Source of the DNA: Candidatus Latescibacterota bacterium
Lineage (GTDB): Bacteria; Latescibacterota; UBA2968; GCA-2709665
Reading direction: 5' to 3'
Assembly (NCBI GenBank): GCA_965248435.1
Contig: OZ252100.1
Location: forward strand, 2,720,001 to 2,784,000
DNA length: 64,000 bases
Below the pieces are notes generated by a model that saw only the letters and a program-made list of their open reading frames with translations, did not search any database and was not told where the DNA came from. The stretch's first letter is position 1. Every line of letters begins with the position of its first letter. The position numbers and the translations under genes were made by a program. Of the stretch, positions 607-56,189 are shown one piece after another.

Positions 607-1611
607 ATGACCAAAGGAACCGAGACATCTGCCTCAGGTCGAATGCTACAATCAAGCCAGGTTGCAGACATCCCCAAGGGCGCAAAGCCAGCACCCTGGA
701 AGCCCGCTGTCTTGACAGGCCAGCGGACCTACCCACCCCTCGAGATGCAGCTCGCGCAGCACAAAGAGGCTGCTGAGAAAGCGAGGGAGCCTAAACCTGC
801 CCGCGAGCGACAGACGGCGCCTCCTGAGCCTCAGGACGGGGGGCCGATTGCTCCGGATGAGTCGATGGAACAGATCGCCGCGCGCAGGCCAATAGACGTA
901 GCAAGGGCAGTAAGTACGCTGCTGATGCAGGCGGATGGCGAAAGCGCCGGCCTTCCAGCGGACCTGAAAGTTGCGATCCTGATCGTGGGCCTCGGCTCCG
1001 ATCTTTCAGCCGGTGTAATCAAATACCTGGCCGAACCGAAGATATCTCAGATCGCCCGTGCCGTCGCGGAGCTCGAAAGCGTCACCACCCGGCAGAGAGA
1101 CGACGTCTTCGACGAAGTCAAGCATCTGATATCTGGGAATCACCTTCTCCAGGGGGGAACTGCCTTCGCTCGGAACCTACTCGAGAAGGCGCTCGGTGAA
1201 CGGAAGGGACGGGCGATGATGTGGCGGGTGAGCGGAACGACCGAAAGAAAATTCGATTTGTTCCGAAACATCGATCCTGAACAAATCGTGTCCTTCATCG
1301 CGAGGGAACATCCGCAGACGATCGCCCTCATCCTGTCGCAGTTGGATGCGAAACAGGCAGCAGGGGTGCTCAACGGTCTCTCAGAGGAACTTCAGGATGA
1401 CGTGATCCTCCGCATCACCCAGATGGAGACCATTTCTCCCGAGGCGCTCAGTAGACTCGAACAGGGCCTGGCGGAGGACATCCACGCGATTCTGGCGGGT
1501 CAAGTCGAGGTAGGTGGGCAGAAAGCTGCAGCCGAGATTGTAAAGCAGGCGGAAGTCCTGCGCCAAAAAAGAGAGGAATCTCAAAATGCCCACGAAAAGG
1601 AAGGCACCTGA
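607..1611 (+). CDS. fliG: Atypical FliG-like protein: Pro-rich N-terminus, FliF-C-like helix, FliG N and M domains, no FliG C-terminal torque domain
   Basis: KVAILIVGLG...GGTAFARNLLEKALG (FliG-N), FDLFRNIDPEQIVSFIAREHPQTIALILSQL (FliG-M with EHPQ), GGQKAAAEIV, then stop about 20 aa later. AAGGAG RBS upstream. Confidence 0.85.
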   Translation: MTKGTETSASGRMLQSSQVADIPKGAKPAPWKPAVLTGQRTYPPLEMQLAQHKEAAEKAREPKPARERQTAPPEPQDGGPIAPDESMEQIAARRPIDVARAVSTLLMQADGESAGLPADLKVAILIVGLGSDLSAGVIKYLAEPKISQIARAVAELESVTTRQRDDVFDEVKHLISGNHLLQGGTAFARNLLEKALGERKGRAMMWRVSGTTERKFDLFRNIDPEQIVSFIAREHPQTIALILSQLDAKQAAGVLNGLSEELQDDVILRITQMETISPEALSRLEQGLAEDIHAILAGQVEVGGQKAAAEIVKQAEVLRQKREESQNAHEKEGT

Positions 1612-1864: not shown

Positions 1865-2218
1865 GTGCTCCAACATCGACAGCATCTCCTCGGCTTCCTG
1901 CCTGTGACCAGCGGCCTCCTGATCGGCGCCTGTCTCGTCTACTGCGCCGTCTGGTGGATCCCCCACCCCATGACGATTGCCGATCCTGACTGCAGCATCA
2001 CCTGCTGGGCCTACTGCGCCACGCAGAGCCCTTTCTGGGGCACCCTGACCGCGGTCCTTGCAGCCGGTCTCTGTTTTGGCGGCATCCTGATCCTCCTACG
2101 CAAAGAATACGGTATTGAGACCAGTCTTGTCCTCGGTATCCTCACCCTGCCCACAGGGCTCCTCGCGGTCGTCCCCTTCGCCTTCAACCGCTGGTCGCTC
2201 AGTCACCGAGAGGCCTGA
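1865..2218 (+). CDS. Small hypothetical membrane protein (about 3 TM segments, Cys-rich loop)
   Basis: GTG start directly after the fliN stop; three hydrophobic stretches; DCSITCWAYC in the loop between the first two. Confidence 0.55.
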   Translation: MLQHRQHLLGFLPVTSGLLIGACLVYCAVWWIPHPMTIADPDCSITCWAYCATQSPFWGTLTAVLAAGLCFGGILILLRKEYGIETSLVLGILTLPTGLLAVVPFAFNRWSLSHREA

Positions 2219-2269
2219 GAGAACCCCGCGTCCGCTCAAGCAAGAATCCCAAAAAGTGATGATGTAATG

Positions 2270-3529
2270 CTATCGGTAGGGTAGCGGCTCTGGGTCCAGC
2301 CATCGACACGCTCTGTCTTTGATCGCCCAGGTCGTGAAGAAGTTTCCCGCTGGAGTGTGGTGTTGATGGCCGATATAGTAACGATCCAGGTAGGTGTCGA
2401 TGTCTGTGTTGAACTGGCTGTACTCTCTAACAAACGCCTCCCGCATATCGATGACTGGAAAATCCCGGTTCTCGAGCCATTCCCGAAAGGACCGGTCGAA
2501 CCTCGGCTTTCCAGCCAGTTCGGCCGCCACATTCCCGCGGCAAAACGAAAGCATGAGCAGAAGCTTCTTGCCGGTTTCCTGAGTCAAGGCTTCGACTCGC
2601 TCCACAACATACCGGGTTGCAAAAAGAGCGGCCTCGGTATGGAGATCAACGATCTGGGCATACAGGTCGCCGTCGGAGCCCTGATCAAGGGACATCCCGA
2701 GGCCAGCGGCTGCAGCTGTGGCCACCTCGTGGAAGGACTTCTGATCTGCTTTTGTGGAGGATTCGGAGGCCTGCATCCTCCGACGCAGGTTTGGAACAGG
2801 TCCGGGGAAGGTGTCAAGATCGACCTCCTCTTCACCCGGCCTGCCCTCCCCCGGCCTGAGGGCTTCGACCTGGGCAACGACCAGCTTCAGCACCGGGTCA
2901 TCCTGGTATGCCTCCCATACAAACTCTGAGTCACAGAGGTCATAAACCGCTTCGGGCGTGCCGCTCGGGTTCTCGACCTCCTCACAGGTGCCCTTGCCGA
3001 GGTCGACCTTCAAGTGCGGGAGCGTAAACCTGGGCACGATGTCCATTCGGATCGATTGCCAGGCGTCCAGGTTGCGGAAATGGTCGTCGTCGAAAATATT
3101 GAGAATGATGTACTCCGCACCTGAATCCATCTCTACCCTGCACATGCGACGATAGGCCTGGTAGACGCTGCACCCCCCAACGCCGTAATTTCGGATGGGC
3201 TCCTGGATGTGTGCAGCGAGGTATTCCTGCCAGGTTTCACCGTCACTGACCTGGTGGCCGTGGGTAAAGCTGTCACCGTAACTGTGGATGCGACACGGTC
3301 GATCCGAAAAATTGACCACGCGCCGTGCTCCGTCCGATTCGTAATTGTAAAACCCTTTCGAACCCTCGATGCTGTTTTCACGCACGCCCGAGGTGTGTAC
3401 CCACCCAAGGTCCGCGTCAAACGCCCTGAAGTCTGACTCTGCCGCTGATCCATTGACGGCAGGCCGCACGAATCGGTCTATCATCTCCCGGCTGGGAACC
3501 AGGGAATCCAAATACGCCTTCCGGTCCAA
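2270..3529 (-). CDS. SGNH/GDSL hydrolase-like protein
   Basis: YGDSFTHG (block I), NYGVGG (block II) and C-terminal HHTPAGN; AAGGAG RBS upstream. Confidence 0.7.
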   Translation of the reverse strand: MDRKAYLDSLVPSREMIDRFVRPAVNGSAAESDFRAFDADLGWVHTSGVRENSIEGSKGFYNYESDGARRVVNFSDRPCRIHSYGDSFTHGHQVSDGETWQEYLAAHIQEPIRNYGVGGCSVYQAYRRMCRVEMDSGAEYIILNIFDDDHFRNLDAWQSIRMDIVPRFTLPHLKVDLGKGTCEEVENPSGTPEAVYDLCDSEFVWEAYQDDPVLKLVVAQVEALRPGEGRPGEEEVDLDTFPGPVPNLRRRMQASESSTKADQKSFHEVATAAAAGLGMSLDQGSDGDLYAQIVDLHTEAALFATRYVVERVEALTQETGKKLLLMLSFCRGNVAAELAGKPRFDRSFREWLENRDFPVIDMREAFVREYSQFNTDIDTYLDRYYIGHQHHTPAGNFFTTWAIKDRACRWLDPEPLPYR

Positions 3530-3643: not shown

Positions 3644-4768
3644 TCAGATCAGTCTGCCCAGTACCTCGAGAAGTCGTTCCACATCCGCGCTTCCGTTGAA
3701 CGCGTGTGTCGCGATCCGCATCCGTCCGCCATATCCATCACAAAGGACGCGCTGCTCCACCAACCTGTCTTTGAGAGACTCAGCTTCTTCGTAAATGCAA
3801 CATGTATTGCCCGAACGCGCTTCCCGCTTTTGCGGGCTGATCATGGTCAGGCCGAGTCCCTCCAGACCCGCATAGACCTGCTCTGAGAGATCCCTGGCAT
3901 GGCATTCGATCCGTTCCATGCCAATCCCCAGCAGCACCTCGAGGGACTGATCAAGGTACATCACCACCAGCTTGGCCACATTCCCCGGCTCGAGTCGCTC
4001 CGGCATCGGCTTTTCCCCGACCTCGGCCGGGCGCTCCGGCGACTGGAGCGGCCATATGTCCACATTGTGCCAGCCGAAACAGGTCGCGGCTGTCCTGGCT
4101 TCCGCCCGTTCGCTCAGGTAACAGGGGGCGACTCCGTGCGTCGCGAGCATCCACTTATAACTGCTGCTCACGGTCAAGTCGGTCACATCCGCCGGGACGG
4201 TCAACACACCTGAGGCGTGTGTGGCATCCACGGCCAGAAGCACATCGTTCAGGCCTTCCGAAAGCCGCCGCAGGTTCAGGCACTGCCCCGTGTAGAAGCT
4301 GACCTGGCTGACAGCCATCACGCGTGTTCGATGGTCCACAGCCGCGAGAAGGTCCTCTTCGTGAACGATCAGATCCTTGTGCGGCACCATTCTGACCTGC
4401 ACGCCTCGATCCTTCAGCTGTTTCCAGGCATAAACCACGGAGGGAAATTCGAGGTTGGACGTCACGACATTGTCGCCGTCCCGCCAATCCAACCCCCTTG
4501 CCAGCCAGTTCATACCTTCGGCCGCCGAGGGCATGAAGGCGACCCTCTCTGCCGGAACACCCCACAGCTCGCCCATTCGCTGCCGACATCGTGCCACACG
4601 CGCGATAAGCTTATCCCGCCCCTCCCACGAGGCACTCTTCCACTCCTTGAACGACCGATAAACCTCGTCGTGTGCCTTCAACCAGGGCCCCTCGCCGCCG
4701 GAGCCGAGATGCGTCACGCCCTCCAGTCCAACGAATTCGTCGGGTGAAATCAGGGGTTCTATGGTCAC
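3644..4768 (-). CDS. Aminotransferase class V / cysteine desulfurase-like PLP enzyme
   Basis: GDNVVTSNLEFPS, VDATHASG and SSYKWMLA (PLP lysine); C-terminal MRIATHAFN; GAGGA RBS. Confidence 0.88.
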   Translation of the reverse strand: MTIEPLISPDEFVGLEGVTHLGSGGEGPWLKAHDEVYRSFKEWKSASWEGRDKLIARVARCRQRMGELWGVPAERVAFMPSAAEGMNWLARGLDWRDGDNVVTSNLEFPSVVYAWKQLKDRGVQVRMVPHKDLIVHEEDLLAAVDHRTRVMAVSQVSFYTGQCLNLRRLSEGLNDVLLAVDATHASGVLTVPADVTDLTVSSSYKWMLATHGVAPCYLSERAEARTAATCFGWHNVDIWPLQSPERPAEVGEKPMPERLEPGNVAKLVVMYLDQSLEVLLGIGMERIECHARDLSEQVYAGLEGLGLTMISPQKREARSGNTCCIYEEAESLKDRLVEQRVLCDGYGGRMRIATHAFNGSADVERLLEVLGRLI

Positions 4769-10889: not shown

Positions 10890-11339
10890 TCAAGGGCTGC
10901 TCCCAGCGATCTCTGTAAATCGAATGTTCAGCCCGGAAATCAATCTTTCTCCTCTGAATTCCTTGAAGACTACCTTCACCTGCACGTTCTCCTCTTTTTC
11001 GAAATCGGCGCTGTAAAAAACAACCTCATACGAACCCTCGCGAGTGATCAGCGCAAGCGCCCTCGATTGGTAAAGACCCATTTTCGACACGAGTGTGTCC
11101 CTCATGTCCAGAAAAACAGACTTGCGGATTTGGCTCTTCATATTCTCATCAAAATATCTCGAAAATTCCTCATACTCCGCTTCGTTGAATGCCTGAAGCA
11201 GGTTATCTACGACCGGATCGGCGTAGTTCAGGATCCTCTGCCCCTCCTCTCCCATCGGCTCCACCACCACTGCCCCCTCTTCCACACAGGCCGTCAGGAA
11301 ACAGCACACCCAGAGTGCTCCTCTCAAACCTCTATTCAC
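10890..11339 (-). CDS. Putative lipoprotein, DUF3887-like
   Basis: GTG 11339 with GGAGAG RBS; lipobox FLTAC; ADPVVDNLLQAFNEAEYEEFSRYFDENMKSQI...ADFEKE...ISGL resembles DUF3887 proteins. Confidence 0.65.
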   Translation of the reverse strand: MNRGLRGALWVCCFLTACVEEGAVVVEPMGEEGQRILNYADPVVDNLLQAFNEAEYEEFSRYFDENMKSQIRKSVFLDMRDTLVSKMGLYQSRALALITREGSYEVVFYSADFEKEENVQVKVVFKEFRGERLISGLNIRFTEIAGSSP

Positions 11340-11489
11340 AGGTCTCTCCGGAAGCGGTCCACATCGCCGAGGGCCCCTGCTTCTTTTGCTCTTCGAACTG
11401 AATCTGTTTGGAAATCGACGAAGTCGGACGTAATATGGGGCAAGCCACATTCAAATACGTCCATAATATAGAAAAAAAGGAGATTCTCC

Positions 11490-12341
11490 GTGATCAATTT
11501 CCCCTGCTCGTCATTCACCTGGAAGTCGCGTCCGCATACCCCTGACCCCTACTTTAAATATTCGGGCGGATTTGTGGGAGATCCTGGCCAGGCCTACCAG
11601 GTGAGATTCAACCTCGAAGCCGCGTGCGAAATTCGAGACGAAGCCACTGACCACGTCGCTGAGCTGTTCGTGGGCGCCCCCTGCCGAACGGAATATACGA
11701 TCGGCAAACGGAACCTGTTTCAGATCCCCAGTTCCGAATTCCGGTTCGCCTTCAGCCGCGAACGCAGACTCAGCATCGCCAGGCGCCCCAGCAATGAGCA
11801 GGAAGACGTATCCGTCAAAACACACGACACCTTTCTGGATCACGAAATCGATATTCGCACCTTTCCAGAGTCGGACGAGCTGTCTGACGTAAACGGCATC
11901 GTCCGGGCCACCCTCGGTAAGGACCTGATGAATGCGCGGTCCACCTACCGGGATTCCGATCGCGGGCTCACGATTTCGGTGGAATATCCGGTCAACCTGA
12001 TCAACACGAACGAGGCGGACGGCGAATTTCAGATCTGCACCGGCCCTGTCATCGTGCCCGATCTGAACACCTGGGACGGCCGCGACGTCACCCGCGTCTT
12101 CTTGGCGCACGTAGCCATCACCGCTTTCGACTGGGTCGAGTTCATCCTGCGCCGCGAAGTAGAAACTTCCGAATCAGAAAAGGAATGGTTGGACAAGCCT
12201 CGGGGCCGGGACCGCCAGGAACTCCTGGATCCCAACAATAAGCCCCCTGGTTACCCGTCCAGGAGGCCATGGCCAACTGTCTATAACGAGATCTTGGAGT
12301 TCGAGGCCACAAACGTCATTCTGCGAACGGATAATCCATAG
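11490..12341 (+). CDS. Hypothetical protein
   Basis: 283-aa ORF with AAGGAG RBS and downstream terminator; no motif recognised. Confidence 0.75.
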   Translation: MINFPCSSFTWKSRPHTPDPYFKYSGGFVGDPGQAYQVRFNLEAACEIRDEATDHVAELFVGAPCRTEYTIGKRNLFQIPSSEFRFAFSRERRLSIARRPSNEQEDVSVKTHDTFLDHEIDIRTFPESDELSDVNGIVRATLGKDLMNARSTYRDSDRGLTISVEYPVNLINTNEADGEFQICTGPVIVPDLNTWDGRDVTRVFLAHVAITAFDWVEFILRREVETSESEKEWLDKPRGRDRQELLDPNNKPPGYPSRRPWPTVYNEILEFEATNVILRTDNP

Positions 12342-14152: not shown

Positions 14153-14728
14153 ATGCCCAAGCCGGCGAAAGTCAAACAGATTCTCTCGATCGGTCTTCCC
14201 ACGGCGCTGATCCTTGGATTCATGATTGCACTCTACGTTCGCGACGCCAAGCCTCCACCACGACGCAAACAGGAGAAGAAGCAGGATGTGTTCCAGGAAA
14301 TGGCCAAATCCAGGAAGAGAGTAGAGAAAGAATCAAGTCCTGAAAAACAGGATGATGATAAACCTAAGTCGACCATCATGAATCTGAGTGAAGACGTATT
14401 GAAGATCGCCCCGCACATCTACTACTCAGTCAGGCTCGAACTTGTCGAAGGTGGCCACCTTGACCAGGAGGCTGAGGCAAAGCGGGATTTGAAATCTGTT
14501 TTTGTCCGCCTCATTGAGATCTTCGTCCGAGCCCCGGCCTGGAACCGACTCCGAAGTACCGAAAAAATAGACCTGCTATACAGCACCTTTGAGATGTTAC
14601 ACGGTCGCTATCCCGACCTCACCGAATTCATCAGATTGATCTTCGACGACGGCAGGAAGAATCTGGATCTGAAATTCGACGACATCAAGGCCGCCTCCAG
14701 TTCTGCACGCCGTGGCAGAAAGCCTTGA
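14153..14728 (+). CDS. Single-pass membrane protein, paralog B
   Basis: TM ILSIGLPTALILGFMIALYV; shares LSEDVL.IAPHIYYSVRLELVEGGH...DLKSVFVRLIEI...FIRLIFDDGRKNLDLKFDDI with the upstream gene. Confidence 0.8.
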   Translation: MPKPAKVKQILSIGLPTALILGFMIALYVRDAKPPPRRKQEKKQDVFQEMAKSRKRVEKESSPEKQDDDKPKSTIMNLSEDVLKIAPHIYYSVRLELVEGGHLDQEAEAKRDLKSVFVRLIEIFVRAPAWNRLRSTEKIDLLYSTFEMLHGRYPDLTEFIRLIFDDGRKNLDLKFDDIKAASSSARRGRKP

Positions 14729-14759
14729 ACCAGGATGCATCTCACTAGGCCCTGAACTC

Positions 14760-16345
14760 CTACCTCTCGACCGCGCCTCCGCCCCTTCCCGTAACCGAAA
14801 CAATATCGACCAGATCGCTTCCGCCAGGAGAGGAAATCGTGCGGATTGGCTCCCATCGATAACCCTTTTCTGCAACGCGTAGTACGTCCCCCGGCAGGGT
14901 TACATAGAGGCACTCCCCCCGTCTGAGATCAACTTCGTGTAGATTGAAGTTATAGAACTTCCCCACCGGCTCTTTAGTGTACCTCCACAGGTCCATCCGG
15001 GATTGCATATGCAACTTCTGATAGGCTTTCGGAGAATGATGAGTGAAGAACAGAACGAAGATATATGACGGATAGAAATAGGGGTCTGCGCTGATGATCG
15101 CGCACTCTGATGAACTCTGTTCGGCGAAGGTGATCGCTTCTTTCATTCCGTACTGCCAGGACGGCGCGCTATACCCTGGGTATTTGAGAAAGTAGTGCTG
15201 GGCGTAGACGCCAAGGTTGCCAGCGGCAATCAGACCCGAGCAAATAATGAAGACCCTTCTTTGTCCGACGCCCCTCCATAATTCAATCGCTCTCGTCACG
15301 CCAAGACTGGACAGTACGGCAAACAGGGGACAGCCCACGATAGAGCGCAAAGCGTGTTCTGGTGCCGTGAACGCTGCCGGAATCGGATACAGAAAGAGCC
15401 AGAGCCACCAGAGCGAATCCTTCCTCCGCCTTCGCTTAAGCAAAACCCAGATCCCAAGGCTACCGTTATCAATTCGAAATAGTGAAGCTGGCCTACACCT
15501 CTGGGACTGTGCCGCAGGTTCGGGTCTCCGGTTAGGAACAGAAACCCCGGGCTGAAATACGACAGGCTGTTCAGCGCGATCTTTCCCGGGTCCGAAATCA
15601 GCGTCAGCCTTGCCCGCGCCATCCCTTCAGGCGTAATCCAAGAAGTGAATAGGAACACGAAGGCAGCAAGAAAAAGCAGTCCAGACATCAAGGCCGCCTT
15701 TCTGATCTTCCACAGATCTGTCCGAAAAATCAAACACAGACCCAATAGAAACAGGGGGAGGAAGACCCTGGCCGAGCTGTAGGTATAGAGGCATATGGAA
15801 AAGGTTGCTGCGCTGAGGTAGATAAACTTCGACCTTCTCAGGCCCTTGACGAAGAGAGCAAGACCGAGACAGAAGAGGAGAGGAAGGAGAATCGCCCTCA
15901 CCGCGCACCGACTGAACTGGATGTGCCACGGACTGATGGCAAGGAGGAGGGAGGCAATGAGGGCCGTCTGCGTATTGAAGCAGATCCTGACGAGCCAATA
16001 GAGCGCTCCAATCGTAAGAATCCCTGCAACCGCTGAGGGCAGCCGCGTAGAAAACTCGTTCAAGCCGAACACTGCGATGAACGGGATGGCGACATACCGA
16101 TACGAGGCCTCTACATAATCCCCAAAGGATCTCGTAAGTAGAGGAAGAAACTCCCCGTATTGATCCCTGCCTGTCTGCAGAATCGAATAGGCGTCATACC
16201 CGGTCGAGGCCTCGTCCGAATAGAATCCGTTCGGAATCGATGACAGGAATGGGACTCTAAGCAGGGCAGCCAGAAGAAGGATTGCAGCGAGCCCCAATCG
16301 CTGGAGATTTCTGCCCGGCTCTTCTGGTTGGCTATTAACGGCCAT
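14760..16345 (-). CDS. Glycosyltransferase family 39 (ArnT/PMT-like) polytopic membrane protein, frameshifted near 15455
   Basis: PNGFYSDEASTGYDAYSILQTGRDQYG, FSTRLPSA and AISPWHIQFSR in the first ORF; HALRSI and WQYGMKEAI in the second. One extra G in TTGGGATC gives LGIWVLLKRRRR and fuses them. Confidence 0.8.
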
Positions 16346-47899: not shown

Positions 47900-48123
47900 T
47901 TCCACGCGCGTGGAAAATCTCCCCGAAGTAGCCTCCGGTGACGCCTATCTTTCCGCAATCCACAGTTTTTAAGGTACCCGGTTCCCGTGTTTTGGTGTCC
48001 CAGTACCCTGTTTTCCCTCTGCGACCTCTGCGCCTCCGCGGTTAGATTTGCCTTTCATTCCGCAATCCAAAATCCGCAATCCGCAATTCTTACGGTACCC
48101 AGTACCCGATCCCCGGTACCCGG
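47900..48123. repeat. Cluster of short intergenic repeats
   Basis: 16-bp palindrome TTCCACGCGCGTGGAA at 47900-47915; (G/A)GTACCC heptamers at ~47973-48008 and 48094-48123; CTCTGCG units at ~48017-48040; CAATCCG-type heptamers at 48056-48088. Confidence 0.7.
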
Positions 48124-51100
48124 GTTTCTGCAGCCCGCTTTGTCGAGGCGATGGGCTGCCCGTTCAGCGTCGTCGCCAACCGGTTGAAGGCCAGTGAAAA
48201 CGGGAGAAAGTCGAAGAATCCAACCGTTCCATCCCGGTCGATGTCGGCCAGTCCGTTATAGTTGGGATCTCCCAGGCTGGAGTCGAAGGCAAGGGCGAAG
48301 ATCACGAAGTCGTTGAAATCCTGCCTGAAATCTCCCAGCGCAAGGAGGTAGACCGGATCCCCGTTCGCGTCGGCATACTCTCGAATCAGCGGCGCAGCGG
48401 TGCCCTCGGTCACGTTGTCCAGATCGAACGCATCGATCCGGTAAAGAAACGGACCGGAGACCGTGTCTGTAAATGCACGTGATCCAGCCGGAAGGGTAGC
48501 GACCTTTTCAAGGCCGTTCGCATCCTCACCTCGCCAGATCTCATACCCTTCCACACCAGGGATCGGGAAGGCGAATCCCCGGTAGGGAACGAAGCCTACC
48601 ACCCGATCGTCTTCCGAAGGTGTCCAGTTCAGCGTGGTCCCGTCATTCGTGACTGTGCCGTTCATGGAAGCGACTGGAACCTGCGCGGGTGGCAGGTTGT
48701 CCACGGCCCGCGCCGGTTCAGAGATGGTTTGTTCGGTCGTCCGGATCCGGCCCGTCTGGGCTCGAATGAACCCGGGAAGGCGAACGGTTGCCCTGGGGCG
48801 ACTTAGATCGATGTCTAGCCGCGCGAAAAAGTGGTCTCGTCTCTCTCCCACGATCGACTGGACGTATTTCTCTGGTGGATCGACAAGTTTCCTCAGCTCG
48901 GCCTCCGATATCAGCCCGTTCGAATCAAGGCCTAGTGCTGCGGCCATCTGCCGGACGCTCTCCTTCGTGAATACGCGTTTAGCAAGTACGCGAGGTTCAG
49001 ACGACTTGCGCCCATATTCTCCCGTAATCGCCCAACGGCTCTCCTTGTTGTCCAGTGCCGGCACAACCGCATAGACCGGACCTTCCTCGCCATCCTTTTG
49101 AGGAACGGGGTCGATCACCGCCCAGGGCACAAAGCGCGTGACCGGCTCTTCAAGGGTGACCAGTTCGCCCGCATCGTCCAGGTCAGTCGTAACCTGGATC
49201 TCTCGGTAGACACGGTACTGCGAAAGCCTCGCGTGATCCTCAGATCTCGGGAAGACAAACAGCACGAGCCGGCCCTGGTCTCCCTCGCCCTTTGGTCCCA
49301 GGTAGTCCTGCACGATCAGCGTATCCAACCCAGCAAGGAGCTCCGGGCCGACCGGCGCTGTCCCGTGCGGCACGAACGTCAAAGAGGCCGTGCTTCCCAC
49401 CGCCTTCAACTGGCTCTTCGTGATCCCCGATGTGTCCGTCGGTGCGTTCACCGAACGAGCCGTGATGACAAGCCCTTCACCTTCCCTGTCTGGGGCAACG
49501 GCTGTGAACCGATTCTCGCCCGGCTTGATCTCCTGGGGGCCCGAAGGAATTTTCACATCGCCTATGTTCGCCGCGAACTCCGCCCAGATGCTCTCCATCA
49601 CGTTCCCGCCAGGAACCCGGCTCTCCAACAGATTCGTCGAAGCTGTCAATGAGTCTGACGAATGGAGATCCACCGCCCGATCGAACACCTTCGTGCTCGG
49701 GTTGCCATAGGCGTCCGAGGGTGTGAGATCGATCTCGAACACGCCCGACACCCCGGCGGTCTCTACACCGTCTTCGAACACCTTCAAGCTGTACGTCGTG
49801 AACTCCGCCGCATCCACAGTCAGCGACGAAAGACCACCGGTGATCTTCTCACCCCCGGACGAGTCCTCCACTTCCACGGCGAACTCGTCCAGCCGCTTCG
49901 CAGACCTAACACTCACCACCCGGCTCCCGATCGCCCAGCCTCCACCGTTCAGTGTGCCTGCTCCGTCCCCGTTATCCGTCACCCCACTCCCGCTGAAGCG
50001 AACACTTGAGGTATCCTGCTCGCCCGCATCGACTCGGAGAACCCCCCCTGATTCCTCGTAGGTCACGACCGTCAGCAGCTCACCCACGGTCTTCGTGTCC
50101 ACCGCCGTGATTTTCAGGGGCAATCCGACCCCGGCGATCACTGAATCCACGCCGATGCTGGCACTGTCCAGCGTCACCACGAACGCGTCAGCCGCCGGGT
50201 TCTCGAACGACCGGCTGAACGCGAGCGTGTCCTTCTCAGTGATGAAGATGTTCCCCGCGAGGTCCCTCAGGAAAACCTGAAAGACATACTCCTGCCCGTC
50301 CATCAGAGAATCACCCACGGTCACCTCGACGTCACCCTCTCCTGACGTCACGCCGGTCAGCGACTCCGTAATCACCTGCGGCGGCGAGGCATCCACCTGG
50401 ATGAACCGAACCGATAGTGAATCGACATCCTCTGTCAGCGCAAGTATCGGGTGGCGTGTCTCCTCGTTGATCGTCCGCTCGTCCCCACCGGGAAGCTCAC
50501 CCGACTTTGGGAAGAGCCGCTCCGGCTCAGGCTTCACTGCGTCCTGAATCACATTCTCCAGTGTGAGCGTCGTGCGATTCCCCACGCTGTCTTCTGCCAC
50601 GATCGTCACGTCCAGTGTCTTTCCGCCCTGCTCGGTATTCGCGCCCAGGCTGTCCGTCGCCGTCTTCGTTGCAAAGCTGAACGTCCCGCTCACCTGACCC
50701 CCGAAATCGACCGTGTCAGTCCCGCTCGTGGCGAACAGTGCGCTCGTCGCCTCATCCACCGCCAGCTTCAGAGGGTTCAGCGAGAAGGTCGTATCATCTC
50801 TGAAGACACCGTCGTCATTCACGATATCCAGCACTGCCGTATCCTGCCCGGTAAACCGCACCAACCCGCTGTCAGGGTTAGGATTTTCGGCTGTAATAAC
50901 AGGAAAAACGGCGTCGGCCGCGAAAACGACGTCACTGACGATACCTTCCGGGTTAGCGGAGCCGGCCAGACTCGCACCCAGGTTACCTACATCGTCGACG
51001 AGATAGGCCACCGCCCTGACACGCTGATTGTTCCTGAACTGACCTTCTGTGACCGTAAAGCTCTCACGGGGCTGTGCGTCGAAATCGAACAGGTCCGGGA

Positions 51101-54100
51101 TTGTGGACTTATGAATCGCACTGTCGAGTGCTGATGCGGTGTTCACATCCACGCTCGTGTCCAGGAGGACCACCACCGCCTGGCTCGCATTCGAAGGAAG
51201 GAGCTTTGTGTGATCAAGATCCAGGCCAAGCGTGACGACATCTCCGATCTTGATCGCACGCAGACCACCCACCGTCCCGAGTCCAGTCGTATCCAACACC
51301 ACGCTGTCCACGAGGCCTGTATTCACAGGACGCTGCCCGTCCACACCGACCCTCACGCCGTCTCCCACCAGGCCCAGCCTCGGGTCGATCTGCACCATCG
51401 GCGCATCCATCAGGTTGTGGAGCAGCTTGAGCGCGACCGCATCGCCATCTTCGCTCAGCTTCGCCTGCGCGATCACCCCCGAGTCCGTCGTCTCAGCGTC
51501 GCCAGGCGACACAGCGAACTTTACCGTGAACGTATCCACGGATGCACCGTCCCCCGTCGGCGATAGCAGGGTATCCACCAGTCCGATGTCGCCGAACGAG
51601 CCAAGTACCTCGTCACTGCTCAGCCCTACGATCAGGGTGTCCAGCTCGGGGATCGAAATGACGTCCACCTGAACGGTGTCTCCGATGATGGCAACCGTCC
51701 CGCTGTCTGAAGATGCCGCCAGAGCAATCTTGGCCAGGGACGGTTCTCCCTCCAGGAGTATCGACAGCCGGATGCGGACACCCTGAGGGTCCACCTGAAG
51801 CGTGTTGACCACAAAGTTGTCAGTGGTCGTGAACCTGTAAGTCGCTCCGCTGCTGATCGACTTCACGCGCCAGAAGAAGGTACCGTCACCCAGATCGGGT
51901 GTAAGCTGACTGGCGGTTATCCCGGTGACCGTGGTCGAACCACTGAATCCTGAATTGTCCGCATACTCCAGTGTATAGCTTGCCGTACCCGTGACATCTG
52001 CCCAGTCCAGGGTGGGCGACGCATCAAATATAGACGCCCCGTTGAATCGAGCCAGGGCGGCCGCGCTGGTCAGATTGTGAAGTACCGACACTGTGGTCGA
52101 AATGTTCGGAATCGTCAGATCGGGTATGCCATCCCCGTCCAGATCCGCGACCGCGACGTCACGTGCAGTCGCCGCGAGAGAGACATTGACTTCGCCGGCA
52201 AGGGAGATGGATCCGCTCGTACTCGTGTTCCGAAATATCGAAACCGAACCCCCATCGTTCGAAACCACGACGTCGGGCTTGCCGTCGCCATCTACATCGC
52301 CGATCGCTACACCGATCGGAGTGGTTCCGGTTGAGGAATCTATCTTTGCAGCCAGAGAGATCGAGCCGGAGACGCTCGTGTTTCGAAAGATGGACACTGT
52401 GTTGTCAGTCTGGTTGGTGATTGCAATGTCCAATTTGCCGTCGCCATCCAGATCCCCTACCGCCAGACCATTAGGATCCGCTCCAGTGACGAAGTCGACT
52501 GTGGCAGCGAAGGAGGAGGGCGCGTCGATGAGGCCCGGAGTGGCTGTATTTCGAAGTACGGATACCCGATCCAACGCTCCGGAATCCGAGACGATGAGGT
52601 CGGGTTTTCCATCCCCATCTATATCCCCGATGGCCAGTAGTTTTGGTGTCGTGCCAGTGCCGAAGTCTTCCTTTGGCGAAAACGAATCGCTGGTGATCGC
52701 CCCGGGAACAGCGGTGTTTCGAAATACTGATACCTTGTCAGTAGTGGAACTTGTGGCGGCCAAATCCAGTTTTCCATCCCCGTCCAAATCCCCTATCGCC
52801 ACATCTATCAGACTGCCAGCCCCCGTAAACGGCACCTCAGCGGCGAAGCTGATCGTGCCGGATGTGCTCGTGTTCCGAAACACGCCCACCGTGTTAGAAT
52901 TGTTTGCCGTGGCGATGTCCGGTTTACCGTCGCCGTCCAAATCCCCGATGGCCACACCGATGGGATCGGCTCCTGTGGTAAACGGGACTTGTGTCGCAAA
53001 GGATGAGCCTGTGATACTCCCCGGAGTACTGGTATTTCGAAATATGGACACCGAGTTTGTCGTATTATTCGTAACCGCCAGTTCTGGTTTGCCATCCCCA
53101 TCCAGGTCGCCTACTGCTACGTGGAAAGACGTGGTTTCTGTAGTAAAAGTCTCTTTTGGCGCCAGGCTTGAAGTGTCGAAAGTCGGAGAGTCGCCTGAGA
53201 AGGTCGGGATGAAAAACTGGGTCGAGATCGCTGTCCGGTTTCCCGCAGTCACGCTTATTGGACCGTATCCTGAGCCGGACGGCACGGTCACCGTCAGCGA
53301 AGTCGTGGATGCCGAGGTGACCGTCGCCTTGATCGGATCGAAGAAGACCGTGTTGTTCGCCGCGGTCGCGTCGAAACTCGTCCCCGTGATCGTCACAGCC
53401 GTTCCCACCTTGCCCGAGGTGGGCGTGATGGAGGTGATGGTGGGTGGGTCGGCGATGTTGTGGAGGATGGAAATTGAAGTGACTCCGCTATTCGCAGCGA
53501 CTATTTCCGGTTTCCCATCTCCAGTCAGGTCACCAACCGCCACGCCTACTGGGTTGCTAGCAACGGTAAAATCAACATTCGTGGCAAACGATATGGACCC
53601 TGATGAACCTGTGTTCCTCAGTACTGACACCGAAAGGCTGCTGTTGTTGGAGACAACCAGGTCCAGTTTGGCATCCCCATTAATGTCGCCGGCAGCGATT
53701 CGACTCGGTGAGGTGCCGGTGGAGAAAGTAAGATCGGATGCAAACGAGGATCCATTAATGGTTCCTGATACGGCAGTATTTCTGAGCACAGAGACATTAT
53801 TATCGGTTGCGTTGACTGTTGCGACATCGATCTTTCCGTCACCGTTGTAGTCCCCGAGTACGGGGCACGCTGGTCCTGCTCCGGTTGAAAACTCATCGTG
53901 GGTCTCGAACGATGAAGCGTCGATGACACCCGCCGAGGCCACGTTGCGAAGCACGGAGATCGTGTTTGAGCCCTGGTTTGCTACAACGATTTCGGGTTTT
54001 TTATCGCCATCGATGTCCGCAACAGCGACCCACCGGGGGTTTGTTCCGACGGTGAAATTGACCCCGCTCTCGAAGGAGTTCGAATCGATCTTGCCCTCAA

Positions 54101-56189
54101 TGGAGGTATTCCGGAATACCTGAACGGAGGTGTTGGAGTTATTTCCCAGGACTATATCGAGCCTCGCATCTCCGTCGAAGTCGGCTATCGCGATCCCACG
54201 TGGTTGTCCTGAAGCCGTGAAATCGACGCTCCCGGCCAGAGTCGATCCGTCGATTACGCCGCTCGTTGATGTATTATGCAACACTGAGAAATCCGTTGAA
54301 CCCTGATTCACAACGATAACTTCGCACTTCCCATCGCCATCCAGGTCGGCGATGGCCACCCCATACGGCGTGGTTCCTGTAGTGAAATCATCCTTGGCTT
54401 CAAAGGATGTAGCGTTTAGCCCCCCCGACAGCCCTGCGTTTCGGAAAAGGGACACTTTAACAGCGCCCTGGTCGGTCACCGCGAGATCAGGGAATCCATC
54501 CCCATCGATGTCTCCGATCGCGACCTGCAAGGGCGTTGTATTCGTGGTGAAATTGATTTTGTCGCCGAAGGTACCGGCTGTGATGGTCTGAGAAATGCCT
54601 GAGTATGTTGGCAGGAAGAACTCATCCGACTCCGCGATCCCCGCGTTGACCTTCACGGTAATGGGTCCAAACGTTGCGCCTGTGGGAACGGTCACCGTCA
54701 GCGAGGTCGTGGAAGCCGAGGTCACCGTCGCCTTCGTCGCGCCGAAGAACACGGTGTTGTCAGCCGTGTCAGCGTCGAACTCTTCGCCGGTGATCGTCAC
54801 CGACGTCCCCACATTGCCTGAGGTAGGACTGATAGAGGTGATCTTTGGTCGGAGGCGAAGAAACAGAACATAGGCAGCTCCGCGGCTGAAGCCGCCGGTG
54901 TCATCTCTGAACGCCCCCACGGCCAGATCTTCGACCCCGTCGTTGTCCAGATCCCCCACACCGGCTACAGAGATGCCGAATTGGTCACTATTCGTGAGGG
55001 TGACGTTGAAGCCGCCGGTGTTGTCGGCGATCTTCTGGTTACTTTTGACGGTGCCGTTGCTGTTCATAAACAGCACATACACAGCACCTCGATCCGTGCC
55101 GCCGGTGTCATCTGCGTACGTCCCCACGGCCAGGTCTTCGACCCCATCGCCGTCCAGATCCCCCACACCCGCTACCGATACGCCGAATTGGTCGGAATCT
55201 GTCAGCGTAACGCTGAAGCCGCCCGTGTTGTCGGCGATCTTCTGGCTGCTTTTGACCGTACCGTTGCTGTTCATAAACAATACATACACCGCACCTCGAG
55301 CCGGGCCGCCCGTGTCGTCTAAGAACGCCCCCACGGCCAGATCTTCGACTCCGTCGTTGTCCAGATCCCCCACACCCTTTACAGAGGTGCCGAATCGGTC
55401 ACTATTCGTGAGGGTGACGTTGAAGCCGCCAGTGTTGTCGGCGATTTTCTGGTTACTTTTGACGGTGCCGTTGCTGTTCATAAACAGCACATACACAGCA
55501 CCTCGATCCGTGCCGCCGGTGTCATCTCTGAACGCCCCCACGGCCAGATCTTCGACCCCGTCGCCGTCCAGATCCCCCACACCCGCTACCGATACGCCGA
55601 ATTGGTCGGAATCTGTCAGCGTAACGCTGAAGCCGCCCGTGTTGTCGGCGATCTTCTGGCTGCTTTTGACCGTACCGTTGCTGTTCATAAACAGCACATA
55701 CACAGCACCTCGATCCGTGCCGCCCGTGTCGTCTAAGAACGCCCCCACGGCCAGATCTTCGACCCCGTCGTTGTCCAGATCCCCCACACCGGCTACAGAG
55801 ATGCCGAATTGGTCACTATTCGTGAGGGTGACGTTGAAGCCGCCAGTGTTGTCGGCGATTTTCTGGTTACTTTTGACGGTGCCGTTGCTGTTCATAAACA
55901 GCACATACACAGCACCTCGATCCGTGCCGCCCGTGTCGTCTAAGAACGCCCCCACGGCCAGGTCTTCGACCCCGTCGCCGTCCAGATCCCCCACACTTGC
56001 TACTGATCTGGCGAATTGGTCACTATTCGTGAGGGAGACACTGAAGCCACCGGTGTTGTCGGCAATCTTCTGAGAGCTCTTCGCCGAGCCGGTCTGGGCG
56101 CGGGTAGAAAAAGCGCACAACAGAAGTAGGAATCCTCCGAGGAGGATTCCTGATCCCAGGTTACTGGCATATCGACCGAAGCACGTCAC
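48090..56189 (-). CDS. Giant secreted/surface protein: FG-GAP (integrin-alpha-like) propellers, IPT/TIG domains, Fn3-like domain, long uncharacterised region, dockerin-like EF-hand C-terminus
   Basis: Signal peptide ending STRA-Q; many GDLDGDG..DL motifs; two P.ITSI.PTSG.VGT.VTITG IPT starts; terminal DFNDFVIFA...ADIDRDGTVGFFDFLPFSLAF. Confidence 0.92.
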   Translation of the reverse strand: MTCFGRYASNLGSGILLGGFLLLLCAFSTRAQTGSAKSSQKIADNTGGFSVSLTNSDQFARSVASVGDLDGDGVEDLAVGAFLDDTGGTDRGAVYVLFMNSNGTVKSNQKIADNTGGFNVTLTNSDQFGISVAGVGDLDNDGVEDLAVGAFLDDTGGTDRGAVYVLFMNSNGTVKSSQKIADNTGGFSVTLTDSDQFGVSVAGVGDLDGDGVEDLAVGAFRDDTGGTDRGAVYVLFMNSNGTVKSNQKIADNTGGFNVTLTNSDRFGTSVKGVGDLDNDGVEDLAVGAFLDDTGGPARGAVYVLFMNSNGTVKSSQKIADNTGGFSVTLTDSDQFGVSVAGVGDLDGDGVEDLAVGTYADDTGGTDRGAVYVLFMNSNGTVKSNQKIADNTGGFNVTLTNSDQFGISVAGVGDLDNDGVEDLAVGAFRDDTGGFSRGAAYVLFLRLRPKITSISPTSGNVGTSVTITGEEFDADTADNTVFFGATKATVTSASTTSLTVTVPTGATFGPITVKVNAGIAESDEFFLPTYSGISQTITAGTFGDKINFTTNTTPLQVAIGDIDGDGFPDLAVTDQGAVKVSLFRNAGLSGGLNATSFEAKDDFTTGTTPYGVAIADLDGDGKCEVIVVNQGSTDFSVLHNTSTSGVIDGSTLAGSVDFTASGQPRGIAIADFDGDARLDIVLGNNSNTSVQVFRNTSIEGKIDSNSFESGVNFTVGTNPRWVAVADIDGDKKPEIVVANQGSNTISVLRNVASAGVIDASSFETHDEFSTGAGPACPVLGDYNGDGKIDVATVNATDNNVSVLRNTAVSGTINGSSFASDLTFSTGTSPSRIAAGDINGDAKLDLVVSNNSSLSVSVLRNTGSSGSISFATNVDFTVASNPVGVAVGDLTGDGKPEIVAANSGVTSISILHNIADPPTITSITPTSGKVGTAVTITGTSFDATAANNTVFFDPIKATVTSASTTSLTVTVPSGSGYGPISVTAGNRTAISTQFFIPTFSGDSPTFDTSSLAPKETFTTETTSFHVAVGDLDGDGKPELAVTNNTTNSVSIFRNTSTPGSITGSSFATQVPFTTGADPIGVAIGDLDGDGKPDIATANNSNTVGVFRNTSTSGTISFAAEVPFTGAGSLIDVAIGDLDGDGKLDLAATSSTTDKVSVFRNTAVPGAITSDSFSPKEDFGTGTTPKLLAIGDIDGDGKPDLIVSDSGALDRVSVLRNTATPGLIDAPSSFAATVDFVTGADPNGLAVGDLDGDGKLDIAITNQTDNTVSIFRNTSVSGSISLAAKIDSSTGTTPIGVAIGDVDGDGKPDVVVSNDGGSVSIFRNTSTSGSISLAGEVNVSLAATARDVAVADLDGDGIPDLTIPNISTTVSVLHNLTSAAALARFNGASIFDASPTLDWADVTGTASYTLEYADNSGFSGSTTVTGITASQLTPDLGDGTFFWRVKSISSGATYRFTTTDNFVVNTLQVDPQGVRIRLSILLEGEPSLAKIALAASSDSGTVAIIGDTVQVDVISIPELDTLIVGLSSDEVLGSFGDIGLVDTLLSPTGDGASVDTFTVKFAVSPGDAETTDSGVIAQAKLSEDGDAVALKLLHNLMDAPMVQIDPRLGLVGDGVRVGVDGQRPVNTGLVDSVVLDTTGLGTVGGLRAIKIGDVVTLGLDLDHTKLLPSNASQAVVVLLDTSVDVNTASALDSAIHKSTIPDLFDFDAQPRESFTVTEGQFRNNQRVRAVAYLVDDVGNLGASLAGSANPEGIVSDVVFAADAVFPVITAENPNPDSGLVRFTGQDTAVLDIVNDDGVFRDDTTFSLNPLKLAVDEATSALFATSGTDTVDFGGQVSGTFSFATKTATDSLGANTEQGGKTLDVTIVAEDSVGNRTTLTLENVIQDAVKPEPERLFPKSGELPGGDERTINEETRHPILALTEDVDSLSVRFIQVDASPPQVITESLTGVTSGEGDVEVTVGDSLMDGQEYVFQVFLRDLAGNIFITEKDTLAFSRSFENPAADAFVVTLDSASIGVDSVIAGVGLPLKITAVDTKTVGELLTVVTYEESGGVLRVDAGEQDTSSVRFSGSGVTDNGDGAGTLNGGGWAIGSRVVSVRSAKRLDEFAVEVEDSSGGEKITGGLSSLTVDAAEFTTYSLKVFEDGVETAGVSGVFEIDLTPSDAYGNPSTKVFDRAVDLHSSDSLTASTNLLESRVPGGNVMESIWAEFAANIGDVKIPSGPQEIKPGENRFTAVAPDREGEGLVITARSVNAPTDTSGITKSQLKAVGSTASLTFVPHGTAPVGPELLAGLDTLIVQDYLGPKGEGDQGRLVLFVFPRSEDHARLSQYRVYREIQVTTDLDDAGELVTLEEPVTRFVPWAVIDPVPQKDGEEGPVYAVVPALDNKESRWAITGEYGRKSSEPRVLAKRVFTKESVRQMAAALGLDSNGLISEAELRKLVDPPEKYVQSIVGERRDHFFARLDIDLSRPRATVRLPGFIRAQTGRIRTTEQTISEPARAVDNLPPAQVPVASMNGTVTNDGTTLNWTPSEDDRVVGFVPYRGFAFPIPGVEGYEIWRGEDANGLEKVATLPAGSRAFTDTVSGPFLYRIDAFDLDNVTEGTAAPLIREYADANGDPVYLLALGDFRQDFNDFVIFALAFDSSLGDPNYNGLADIDRDGTVGFFDFLPFSLAFNRLATTLNGQPIASTKRAAETRVPGIGYWVP
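54860..56085 (-). repeat. Six near-identical 207-bp (69-aa) coding tandem repeats with ABABAB pattern
   Basis: Anchor TTGTCGGCGAT recurs at 55021, 55228 and 55435 (207-bp spacing) and onward; units alternate SSQ/FSV/DGDG and SNQ/FNV/DNDG. Confidence 0.95.

Follow-up and report, generated by a model that had tools for sequence, protein, structure and literature searches.

A paralogous FliG of Candidatus Latescibacterota with a predicted FliF tail-like helix-Pro-helix in the same chain as FliG_N

Through the joint between the FliF tail and FliG-N, the flagellar switch is held on the membrane ring and the stoichiometry of the two is set; so far, this joint has been known between two proteins or in laboratory fusions. 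According to excerpts of two studies, the ~46–47 C-terminal residues of FliF wrap around, or co-fold with, domain D1 of FliG (FliG_N) (PMC7355467, PMC11087270). In Salmonella, a full-frame FliF-FliG fusion is described in the excerpted text as motile, with a nine-residue flexible linker restoring the bias (PMC7355467), and, as far as the excerpts go, the fusion also forms C rings (PMC7355467; PMC10941966). FliG rings are built, in the part of the account considered here, by domain swaps between neighbours, in which the D2 hairpin of one subunit completes D1 of the next (PMC11087270).

Here we analysed a 64,000-nucleotide stretch (the window; G000:C1:2720001–2784000) from the genome of a Candidatus Latescibacterota bacterium, which contains a paralogous fliG with an N-terminal extension, hereafter referred to as long fliG. 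In solved FliF tail:FliG_N joints (5TDY, 5WUJ; Salmonella C ring, e.g. 8UMD), the helix-Pro-helix RPEDxAkxIRTxL of FliF lies by FliG_N, and the same pattern appears beside the same FliG_N in the long FliG. In contrast to these joints, which consist of two separate proteins and in which FliF forms a membrane ring, the long FliG is one chain; compared with FliF, its helix 1 is short, and it has neither transmembrane (TM) segments nor ring-building domains. It thereby resembles the laboratory FliF-FliG fusions of Salmonella and Vibrio, which also carry the FliF tail and FliG_N on one chain. However, the complete FliF ring is retained in these fusions, which sit in the membrane, whereas the long FliGs keep only the last ~25 FliF-like residues and are predicted to be soluble. 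Flagellated cells with several FliGs are also represented by spirochetes, whose FliG1/FliG2 paralog pairs include one specialised copy. While laboratory fusions are known, a natural FliG with its own FliF tail seems not to have been described: the literature searched, outside which most subscription papers lie, contained laboratory FliF-FliG fusions but no naturally occurring FliG that includes a FliF tail.

Sequence of the long FliG and its FliF-like segment

Long fliG spans positions 607–1611 (+) of the window and encodes 334 amino acids, with its ATG located 8 nt downstream of a Shine-Dalgarno sequence (AAGGAG). According to the open reading frame and Pfam matches, the protein consists of an N-terminal extension, FliG_N, and FliG_M, and is without FliG_C. 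FliG_N (PF14842; 967–1248, +) covers aa 121–214 with an E-value of 1.1e-25 and 90.7 bits (cut-off 25), and FliG_M (PF14841; 1276–1494, +) covers aa 224–296 with an E-value of 8.7e-31. The latter includes the EHPQT motif, of which residues E234-H-P-Q-T238, comprising the FliM-binding EHPQ motif, are invariant in our alignment. The FliF ring-building domains YscJ_FliF (PF01514) and YscJ_FliF_C (PF08345) gave no Pfam match in the 334-aa protein at E ≤ 0.1.

An earlier note on this DNA, made from the sequence alone, had placed the segment MEQIAARRPIDVARAVSTLLMQ at bases 865–930 (+), just before FliG-N. This placement is exact, as the segment corresponds to aa 87–108 and ends 13 residues ahead of the Pfam FliG_N domain. 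The two are joined by a short Gly/charged linker (931–966, +; aa 109–120), in which the pLDDT of the structure predictions described below falls to 62–77. On the other side, the segment is preceded by a Pro/charged linker (757–864, +; aa 51–86), the length of which varies across relatives in the alignments, and some relatives have an FGE-sulfatase domain at this position. The tail ahead of the segment had been taken for a low-complexity stretch without a TM segment. The latter part of this description stands, since sequence inspection revealed no hydrophobic stretch of TM length in aa 1–86, and no helix was predicted before aa 87; the former does not hold throughout, since aa 11–50 (637–756, +) form a conserved linear motif, predicted to be disordered, which is kept in 20 relatives. 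Their alignment gives the pattern GR..., D-I-P, W-x-P-x-x-L, P-L-x-M-x-L. A second copy of the motif was not detected in the genome, where the top non-self match reached 14.5 bits (E 0.11). The motif likely serves as an address for another partner, and might, as a mere guess, be a peptide that binds FliN/SpoA in the way of FliH/OrgB. A 590-aa protein without a FliG part (P0245) consists of eight tandem repeats of ~66 aa, each with a unit resembling the N-terminal motif (...AWSPAILP...).

The resemblance of aa 87–108 to the FliF C-terminus, previously judged by eye, was borne out by profile comparisons. The genome encodes a single FliF, in a frame of 571 aa with both the YscJ_FliF and YscJ_FliF_C domains and ending in ...PHELLLGRIAQLISERPEDAAKLIRTMLIEDAAQTRSATA. 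A segment HMM built from 15 family members and spanning 35 columns, run with --max and all filters off against 80,757 six-frame ORFs of at least 40 aa from the genome, ranked the long FliG itself first (64 bits) and residues 545–564 of this FliF second (20.5 bits, E 0.0012), ~10 bits above the noise, as the third rank reached only 9.9 bits (E 2.5). In a profile-profile comparison with hhalign, columns 10–34 of A3, an 11-sequence profile of the segment, aligned with columns 476–500 of the 511 columns of a full-length FliF profile (A4, 39 sequences), i.e. with the last helix of FliF (Prob 93.8, E 1.8e-7, score 43.2). Control scores were far lower, both for 200 column shuffles (mean 11.9, sd 2.0, maximum 18.9) and for the reversed profile (17.7). 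When the segment profile was compared with 177,635 PDB sequences, a "Flagellar M-ring protein" (12dr_A) was retrieved in second place, with residues 551–568 of its 569 residues (REKPEDVAKLIRTWLLKN, E 0.035). The extreme C-terminus of FliF was thus the place of the match in three separate searches, by genome HMM, PDB profile, and hhalign. The Pfam YscJ_FliF_C match in the genome's FliF stops ~120 aa short of the C-terminus and is therefore no test of the FliF tail.

Not all searches recovered this relationship. Single-sequence phmmer with the 40-aa segment against the PDB gave 0 matches at E ≤ 10, and NCBIfam applied to 11 segments returned no FliF model, only two stray matches (BcsR and prismane_assoc) in one member each. 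In the reverse direction, an HMM built from the last 50 aa of 116 FliFs (FliF-C HMM) did not recover the window protein among the genome ORFs at E ≤ 100. Direct scoring with this HMM yielded 0.9 bits for the window copy and −2.1 to 11.4 bits for its orthologs, none significant alone, and aligned 11 of 11 long FliGs in one register (positions 25–46). The first rank of the PDB profile search was held by BPSL1147 (5a4n_A, E 0.013), a small protein unrelated to FliF. Its residues 57–75 of 75 (RPELLAQVIQGLLL), which scored slightly above FliF against the helix profile, are likewise C-terminal and may match either by chance or as a related docking helix. Blank or weak single-sequence searches and a non-FliF protein at the head of the PDB search are what one would expect if the segment were a generic amphipathic helix that extends FliG_N and resembles FliF by chance. 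We nevertheless regard such a coincidence as highly improbable, given a profile-profile score of 43.2 against a shuffle maximum of 18.9, the convergence of three independent searches on the extreme C-terminus of FliF, and the canonical FliGs, which begin after the segment. The FliF likeness is therefore visible at the profile level rather than from the window sequence alone, and these comparisons support the view that aa 87–108 resemble the C-tail of FliF and are joined to FliG_N within one chain.

Predicted structure and family conservation

Two AlphaFold2 runs with different alignments, one of aa 76–334 and one of aa 1–334, both predicted an ordered segment, with helices at residues 87–93 and 95–108 and a pLDDT of 85–93 (about 90). 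FliG_N was modelled with a pLDDT of 88–96, whereas aa 1–86 were without secondary structure (pLDDT 42–62), residues 1–80 being disordered. As the pTM was 0.41–0.43, the arrangement of the domains in these models is not reliable. After re-alignment of Foldseek matches, the modelled FliG_N superimposed on the co-folded form in 5tdy_B (Z 9.2, rmsd 2.0 Å, 66 residues). Residues 9–106 of the model (aa 84–181) superimposed on the one-domain chain 1qc7_B over 85 of 89 residues (Z 9.8, rmsd 2.6 Å) and on 8ucs_H over 84 residues (Z 8.9, rmsd 2.9 Å). Because the two helices and FliG_N together overlay a single compact domain, the model must have the helices packed against FliG_N, and judging from the overlay on 1qc7_B the segment may adopt a FliF-like pose. 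Foldseek searches with the model recovered only FliG chains and thus gave no information on the helix. These predictions are in line with an ordered helix-Pro-helix that would pack in cis with FliG_N, as the earlier note had suggested.

When the segment peptide (aa 76–112) and FliG_N (aa 113–215) were submitted to complex prediction as separate chains together with three controls, the pair scored 0.58 in 3 of 3 runs compared to 0.02 for the best control, with a partner pLDDT of at least 68 and a contact agreement of at least 87%. This result was graded as weak support; scores of up to 0.60 are more often wrong than right unless the complex is likely beforehand, and likeness to solved FliF:FliG structures may drive the 0.58. 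The predicted binding of the isolated peptide to FliG_N as a separate chain could also be read in favour of docking in trans. The FliF-like helix would then engage FliG_N in an adjacent long FliG and chain the subunits, or dock on a canonical FliG, where it would compete with FliF and regulate rotor assembly. Precedent for such an exchange comes from FliG rings, which are built by domain swaps between neighbours according to the excerpts of PMC11087270, and the genome encodes three canonical FliGs with free FliF sites. However, the helix in every case immediately precedes the FliG_N of the same chain, at a linker length of only 10–23 aa, and AlphaFold2 places it in cis at high confidence, so that we consider docking in trans unlikely and packing in cis the preferred reading.

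The segment is also conserved within the family. P95 and A99 are invariant in an alignment of 24 sequences, on par with EHPQT. In a pattern scan of 27 members, the distance from the end of the helix to the AILxxGLG start of FliG_N was 10–23 residues (median 16) in 25, and in the other two both the helix and the FliG_N start were present by eye. This fixed position next to FliG_N holds across four N-terminal architectures. Predicted disorder of the segment, a failure to pack on FliG_N in the model, or a lack of conservation, which would have counted against the earlier note, were thus not observed.

The nearest homologs (P0002–P0006 and P0008; 389–461 aa) have the same extension plus FliG_C, and the closest FliF and FliG homologs carry the source names Latescibacteria or Latescibacterota. 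With the N-extension as query, 14 of 168 genomes of the phylum matched at E ≤ 0.01, and 9 of 168 were left after removal of spurious frames. The matches in G040, G096, G074, G080, and G141 were dropped as low-complexity or non-coding frames. From the loci of the nine genomes, 11 further long FliGs were read. A profile of the extension retrieved 17 clusters at E ≤ 0.001 from 1.84 billion representative proteins, and the long FliG family is thus rare.

Pfam annotation distinguished four builds among these proteins. The first consists of the motif, linker, helix, and FliG N/M/C, and the second is the same with an inserted FGE-sulfatase domain (e.g. L036, 2.9e-64). This SUMF1-like domain is complete, is flanked by the N-terminal motif on one side and the FliF-like helix on the other, and comes without a TM segment; it is found in the long FliGs at L036 9621–11687, L038 8069–10210, L041 3521–5602, L042 2591–4633, and L043 394–2460. 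The third build combines a FliM-middle domain with the helix and FliG N/M/C. Its two representatives, P0253 (660 aa) and P0255 (580 aa), thus bring together parts of three switch or ring proteins in a single polypeptide. The fourth build is without FliG_C and comprises the window protein, P0242, P0249, and P0254, the last three of which may be fragments at contig ends. In a quick unrooted tree, a single branch (SH-aLRT 85) separated 26 long FliGs from 26 canonical FliGs, and the long FliGs had much longer branches than the canonical ones, with a length of 0.98 for the window protein.

Operon and other switch genes in the genome

Long fliG lies in an operon with the order ECF sigma factor, zf-HC2-type anti-sigma factor (without a TM segment), FliM, FliN, long FliG, and FliN. 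The sigma and anti-sigma genes are located upstream of the window. The paralogous fliM enters the window with its 3' end (1–294, +; Pfam FliMN_C); the whole gene of 344 aa begins upstream and corresponds to the ORF at L005 14260–15294, with a PF02154 match of 140.3 bits at C1:2719326–2719835. This FliM has no REC domain and lacks an obvious N-terminal peptide for CheY binding. It is followed by a fliN paralog (287–595, +; 102 aa, Pfam FliMN_C 4.7e-21) and, downstream of long fliG, by a second one (1586–1864, +; 92 aa, Pfam FliMN_C 8.2e-22), the start of which matches the fliN located behind the long fliG of locus L036. Next to it lies a gene for a small hydrophobic protein (1865–2218, +; 117 aa) without a Pfam match, the operon membership of which is uncertain and for which no conservation was seen in the ortholog loci. 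A few genes further downstream, a class-V aminotransferase-like gene is found at 3644–4768 (−), and in a distant relative such a gene also lies a few genes behind the operon, at L037 7028–8344 (−); the assignment was checked with Pfam for the L037 gene only. Elsewhere in the window, an open frame as long as 2699 aa spans 48090–56189 (−).

Five of six annotated ortholog loci have the same operon, whole or in part, i.e. ECF sigma, zf-HC2 anti-sigma, (REC-)FliM, FliN, long FliG, and FliN. In these loci, FliM is often fused to REC (L036 6733–8223; L037 10704–12164; L042 7567–9615), in one case with two REC domains, and two complete sets sometimes occur in tandem.

Genome-wide matches comprised one FliF, five FliM-type, and seven FliN-type proteins. 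In addition, three canonical FliGs of 338 aa are encoded at C1:2545.9k, 2547.4k, and 4871k (L006 9899–10915 and 11390–12406; L007 9989–11005). Two of these canonical fliG genes are arranged in tandem, each canonical gene is preceded by a gene for a CheY-like receiver, and none adjoins fliF. They share 55–56% identity with the long FliG over FliG_N and FliG_M and have the same EHPQT motif. In contrast to the long FliG, they begin directly at FliG_N (after the segment), have FliG_C, and evolve slowly. Given the canonical FliGs and the further FliM and FliN copies in the genome, the operon represents an extra switch set and not the sole one.

Such an extra set could still act within the motor. 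The long FliG would then be a real part of the C ring under ECF sigma control, for instance at FliG positions without FliF, where it might remodel or brake the motor. The retention of FliG_C in most family members is compatible with this role, as is the presence of FliF and of FliM/FliN sets in the genome. However, long fliG is accompanied by FliM and FliN paralogs of its own and not by fliF, 4 of 17 representative clusters, including that of the window protein, are without FliG_C, and the long FliG branches are much longer than the canonical ones. Taken together, these observations make a position in the C ring improbable, and a FliG that has been released from the MS ring by its own FliF-like tail remains the preferred reading.

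Further combinations of sigma factors and switch domains were observed in the same genome. Two genes encode ECF sigmas with a C-terminally fused FliM middle domain, and at least one encodes an ECF sigma fused to a FliG_C domain (L045, G000:C1:945000–962000, at 1971–3119, 11159–12313, and 14281–15123; also C1:5324598–5325197). A description of an ECF sigma fused to a switch domain was not found in the literature searched. At G000:C1:31623–33335 and C1:2513189–2513884, FliG_M/FliG_C or FliG_C alone is joined to other parts; the C-terminal region of the protein encoded at the former position is long, and this protein also contains a hydrophobic segment.

Loss of FliG_C and proposed role

FliG_C (PF01706) gave no Pfam match, neither in the 334-aa protein nor at the locus. 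When the last 150 aa of an ortholog were compared with the window by tblastn, only the first 23 aa aligned, at 1486–1551. Past 1551, the frame is no longer in register; it enters the first part of the adjoining fliN and then reaches a stop. Positions 1495–1611 (+) accordingly comprise a Gly-Gly linker, the first C-terminal helix, and a deletion scar, as delineated by tblastn and Pfam. The region 1486–1611 thus reflects a clean deletion of the whole FliG_C part, which is kept in all close orthologs. Logan contigs of runs X1 and X3, which stem from one sample that is probably the source of the genome, cover positions 1000–2300 with 0 differences. In the independent metagenome run X5, no contig bridges 1510–1747 at the deletion junction.

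The clean deletion, after which the out-of-register frame terminates within the first part of the adjoining gene, could indicate that the window copy is a decaying remnant, in which loss of FliG_C inactivated the gene and the FliF-like helix is kept by descent only. The long branch of the window protein (0.98) agrees with decay, as does the lack of a true match to the N-extension query in G040, a genome of the same genus. On the other hand, the remaining 334 codons are open and preceded by a good ribosome-binding site, the invariant P95, A99, and EHPQT are retained, and three other representatives, possibly contig-end fragments, are also without FliG_C. Furthermore, decay would apply to the window copy only and not to the family. 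We therefore consider it quite unlikely.

The deletion does, however, bear on what the window copy can do. As far as the excerpts of PMC7355467 report, an ARM-C module chains FliG subunits, and this module lies within the deleted part. With ARM-C and the torque helix gone, neither ring chaining nor stator contact is expected for the window copy, and since the whole FliG_C part including ARM-C is deleted, its oligomerisation and ring formation are doubtful. This limits the earlier proposal that the protein supplies its own FliF-C mimic and could thus fold and oligomerise without a membrane MS ring: the mimic in cis is retained, but oligomerisation of this copy is questionable. Binding of FliM via FliG_M remains possible, and the window copy may thus be a FliM-binding scaffold at most.

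We consider aa 87–108 best explained as a true counterpart of the FliG-binding helix-Pro-helix of FliF within a paralogous FliG chain. Because the natural linker of 10–23 residues is of the order of the nine-residue linker used in Salmonella, and in view of FliF/FliG co-folding and the motility of the fusion, we read the segment as a FliF tail supplied in cis. This tail probably completes FliG_N, occupies its FliF site, and frees the paralog from the MS ring, where independence of the MS ring and a role in a separate complex are what we infer from the combined evidence. In mechanistic terms, the segment would fold back via the 10–23-residue linker onto its own FliG_N and complete in cis the otherwise "split" FliF-C:FliG-N domain. 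FliG_N would thus already be folded and its FliF site filled, and the long FliG could assemble without the need for FliF and would probably be unable to use it. Together with the FliM and the two FliNs of its operon, the long FliG may then assemble into a switch-like complex at a distance from the MS ring. The N-terminal motif would serve as the address of this complex, which would be co-expressed with the upstream ECF sigma/anti-sigma pair or coupled to it.

A tentative extension, which we regard as somewhat speculative and rather doubtful, is that the long FliG and its FliM/FliN paralogs constitute a cytoplasmic, MS-ring-free switch-like complex that has been re-used as a scaffold for ECF sigma signalling. 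In such a scaffold, the sigma-FliM-middle and sigma-FliG_C fusions could dock on FliG_M via ordinary switch contacts, and the built-in FliF tail would be what released FliG from the flagellum. A bolder variant would see the long FliG family as an unsplit form of the FliF-C/FliG-N domain.

If true, the long FliGs would provide a natural, ready-made soluble version of the co-folded FliF-C:FliG-N domain and a test case for the assembly and signalling of switch proteins away from the flagellum. The ECF sigma/anti-sigma neighbours, together with the REC-FliM, sigma-FliM, and sigma-FliG_C fusions, suggest that components of the motor may have been re-used for the control of transcription.
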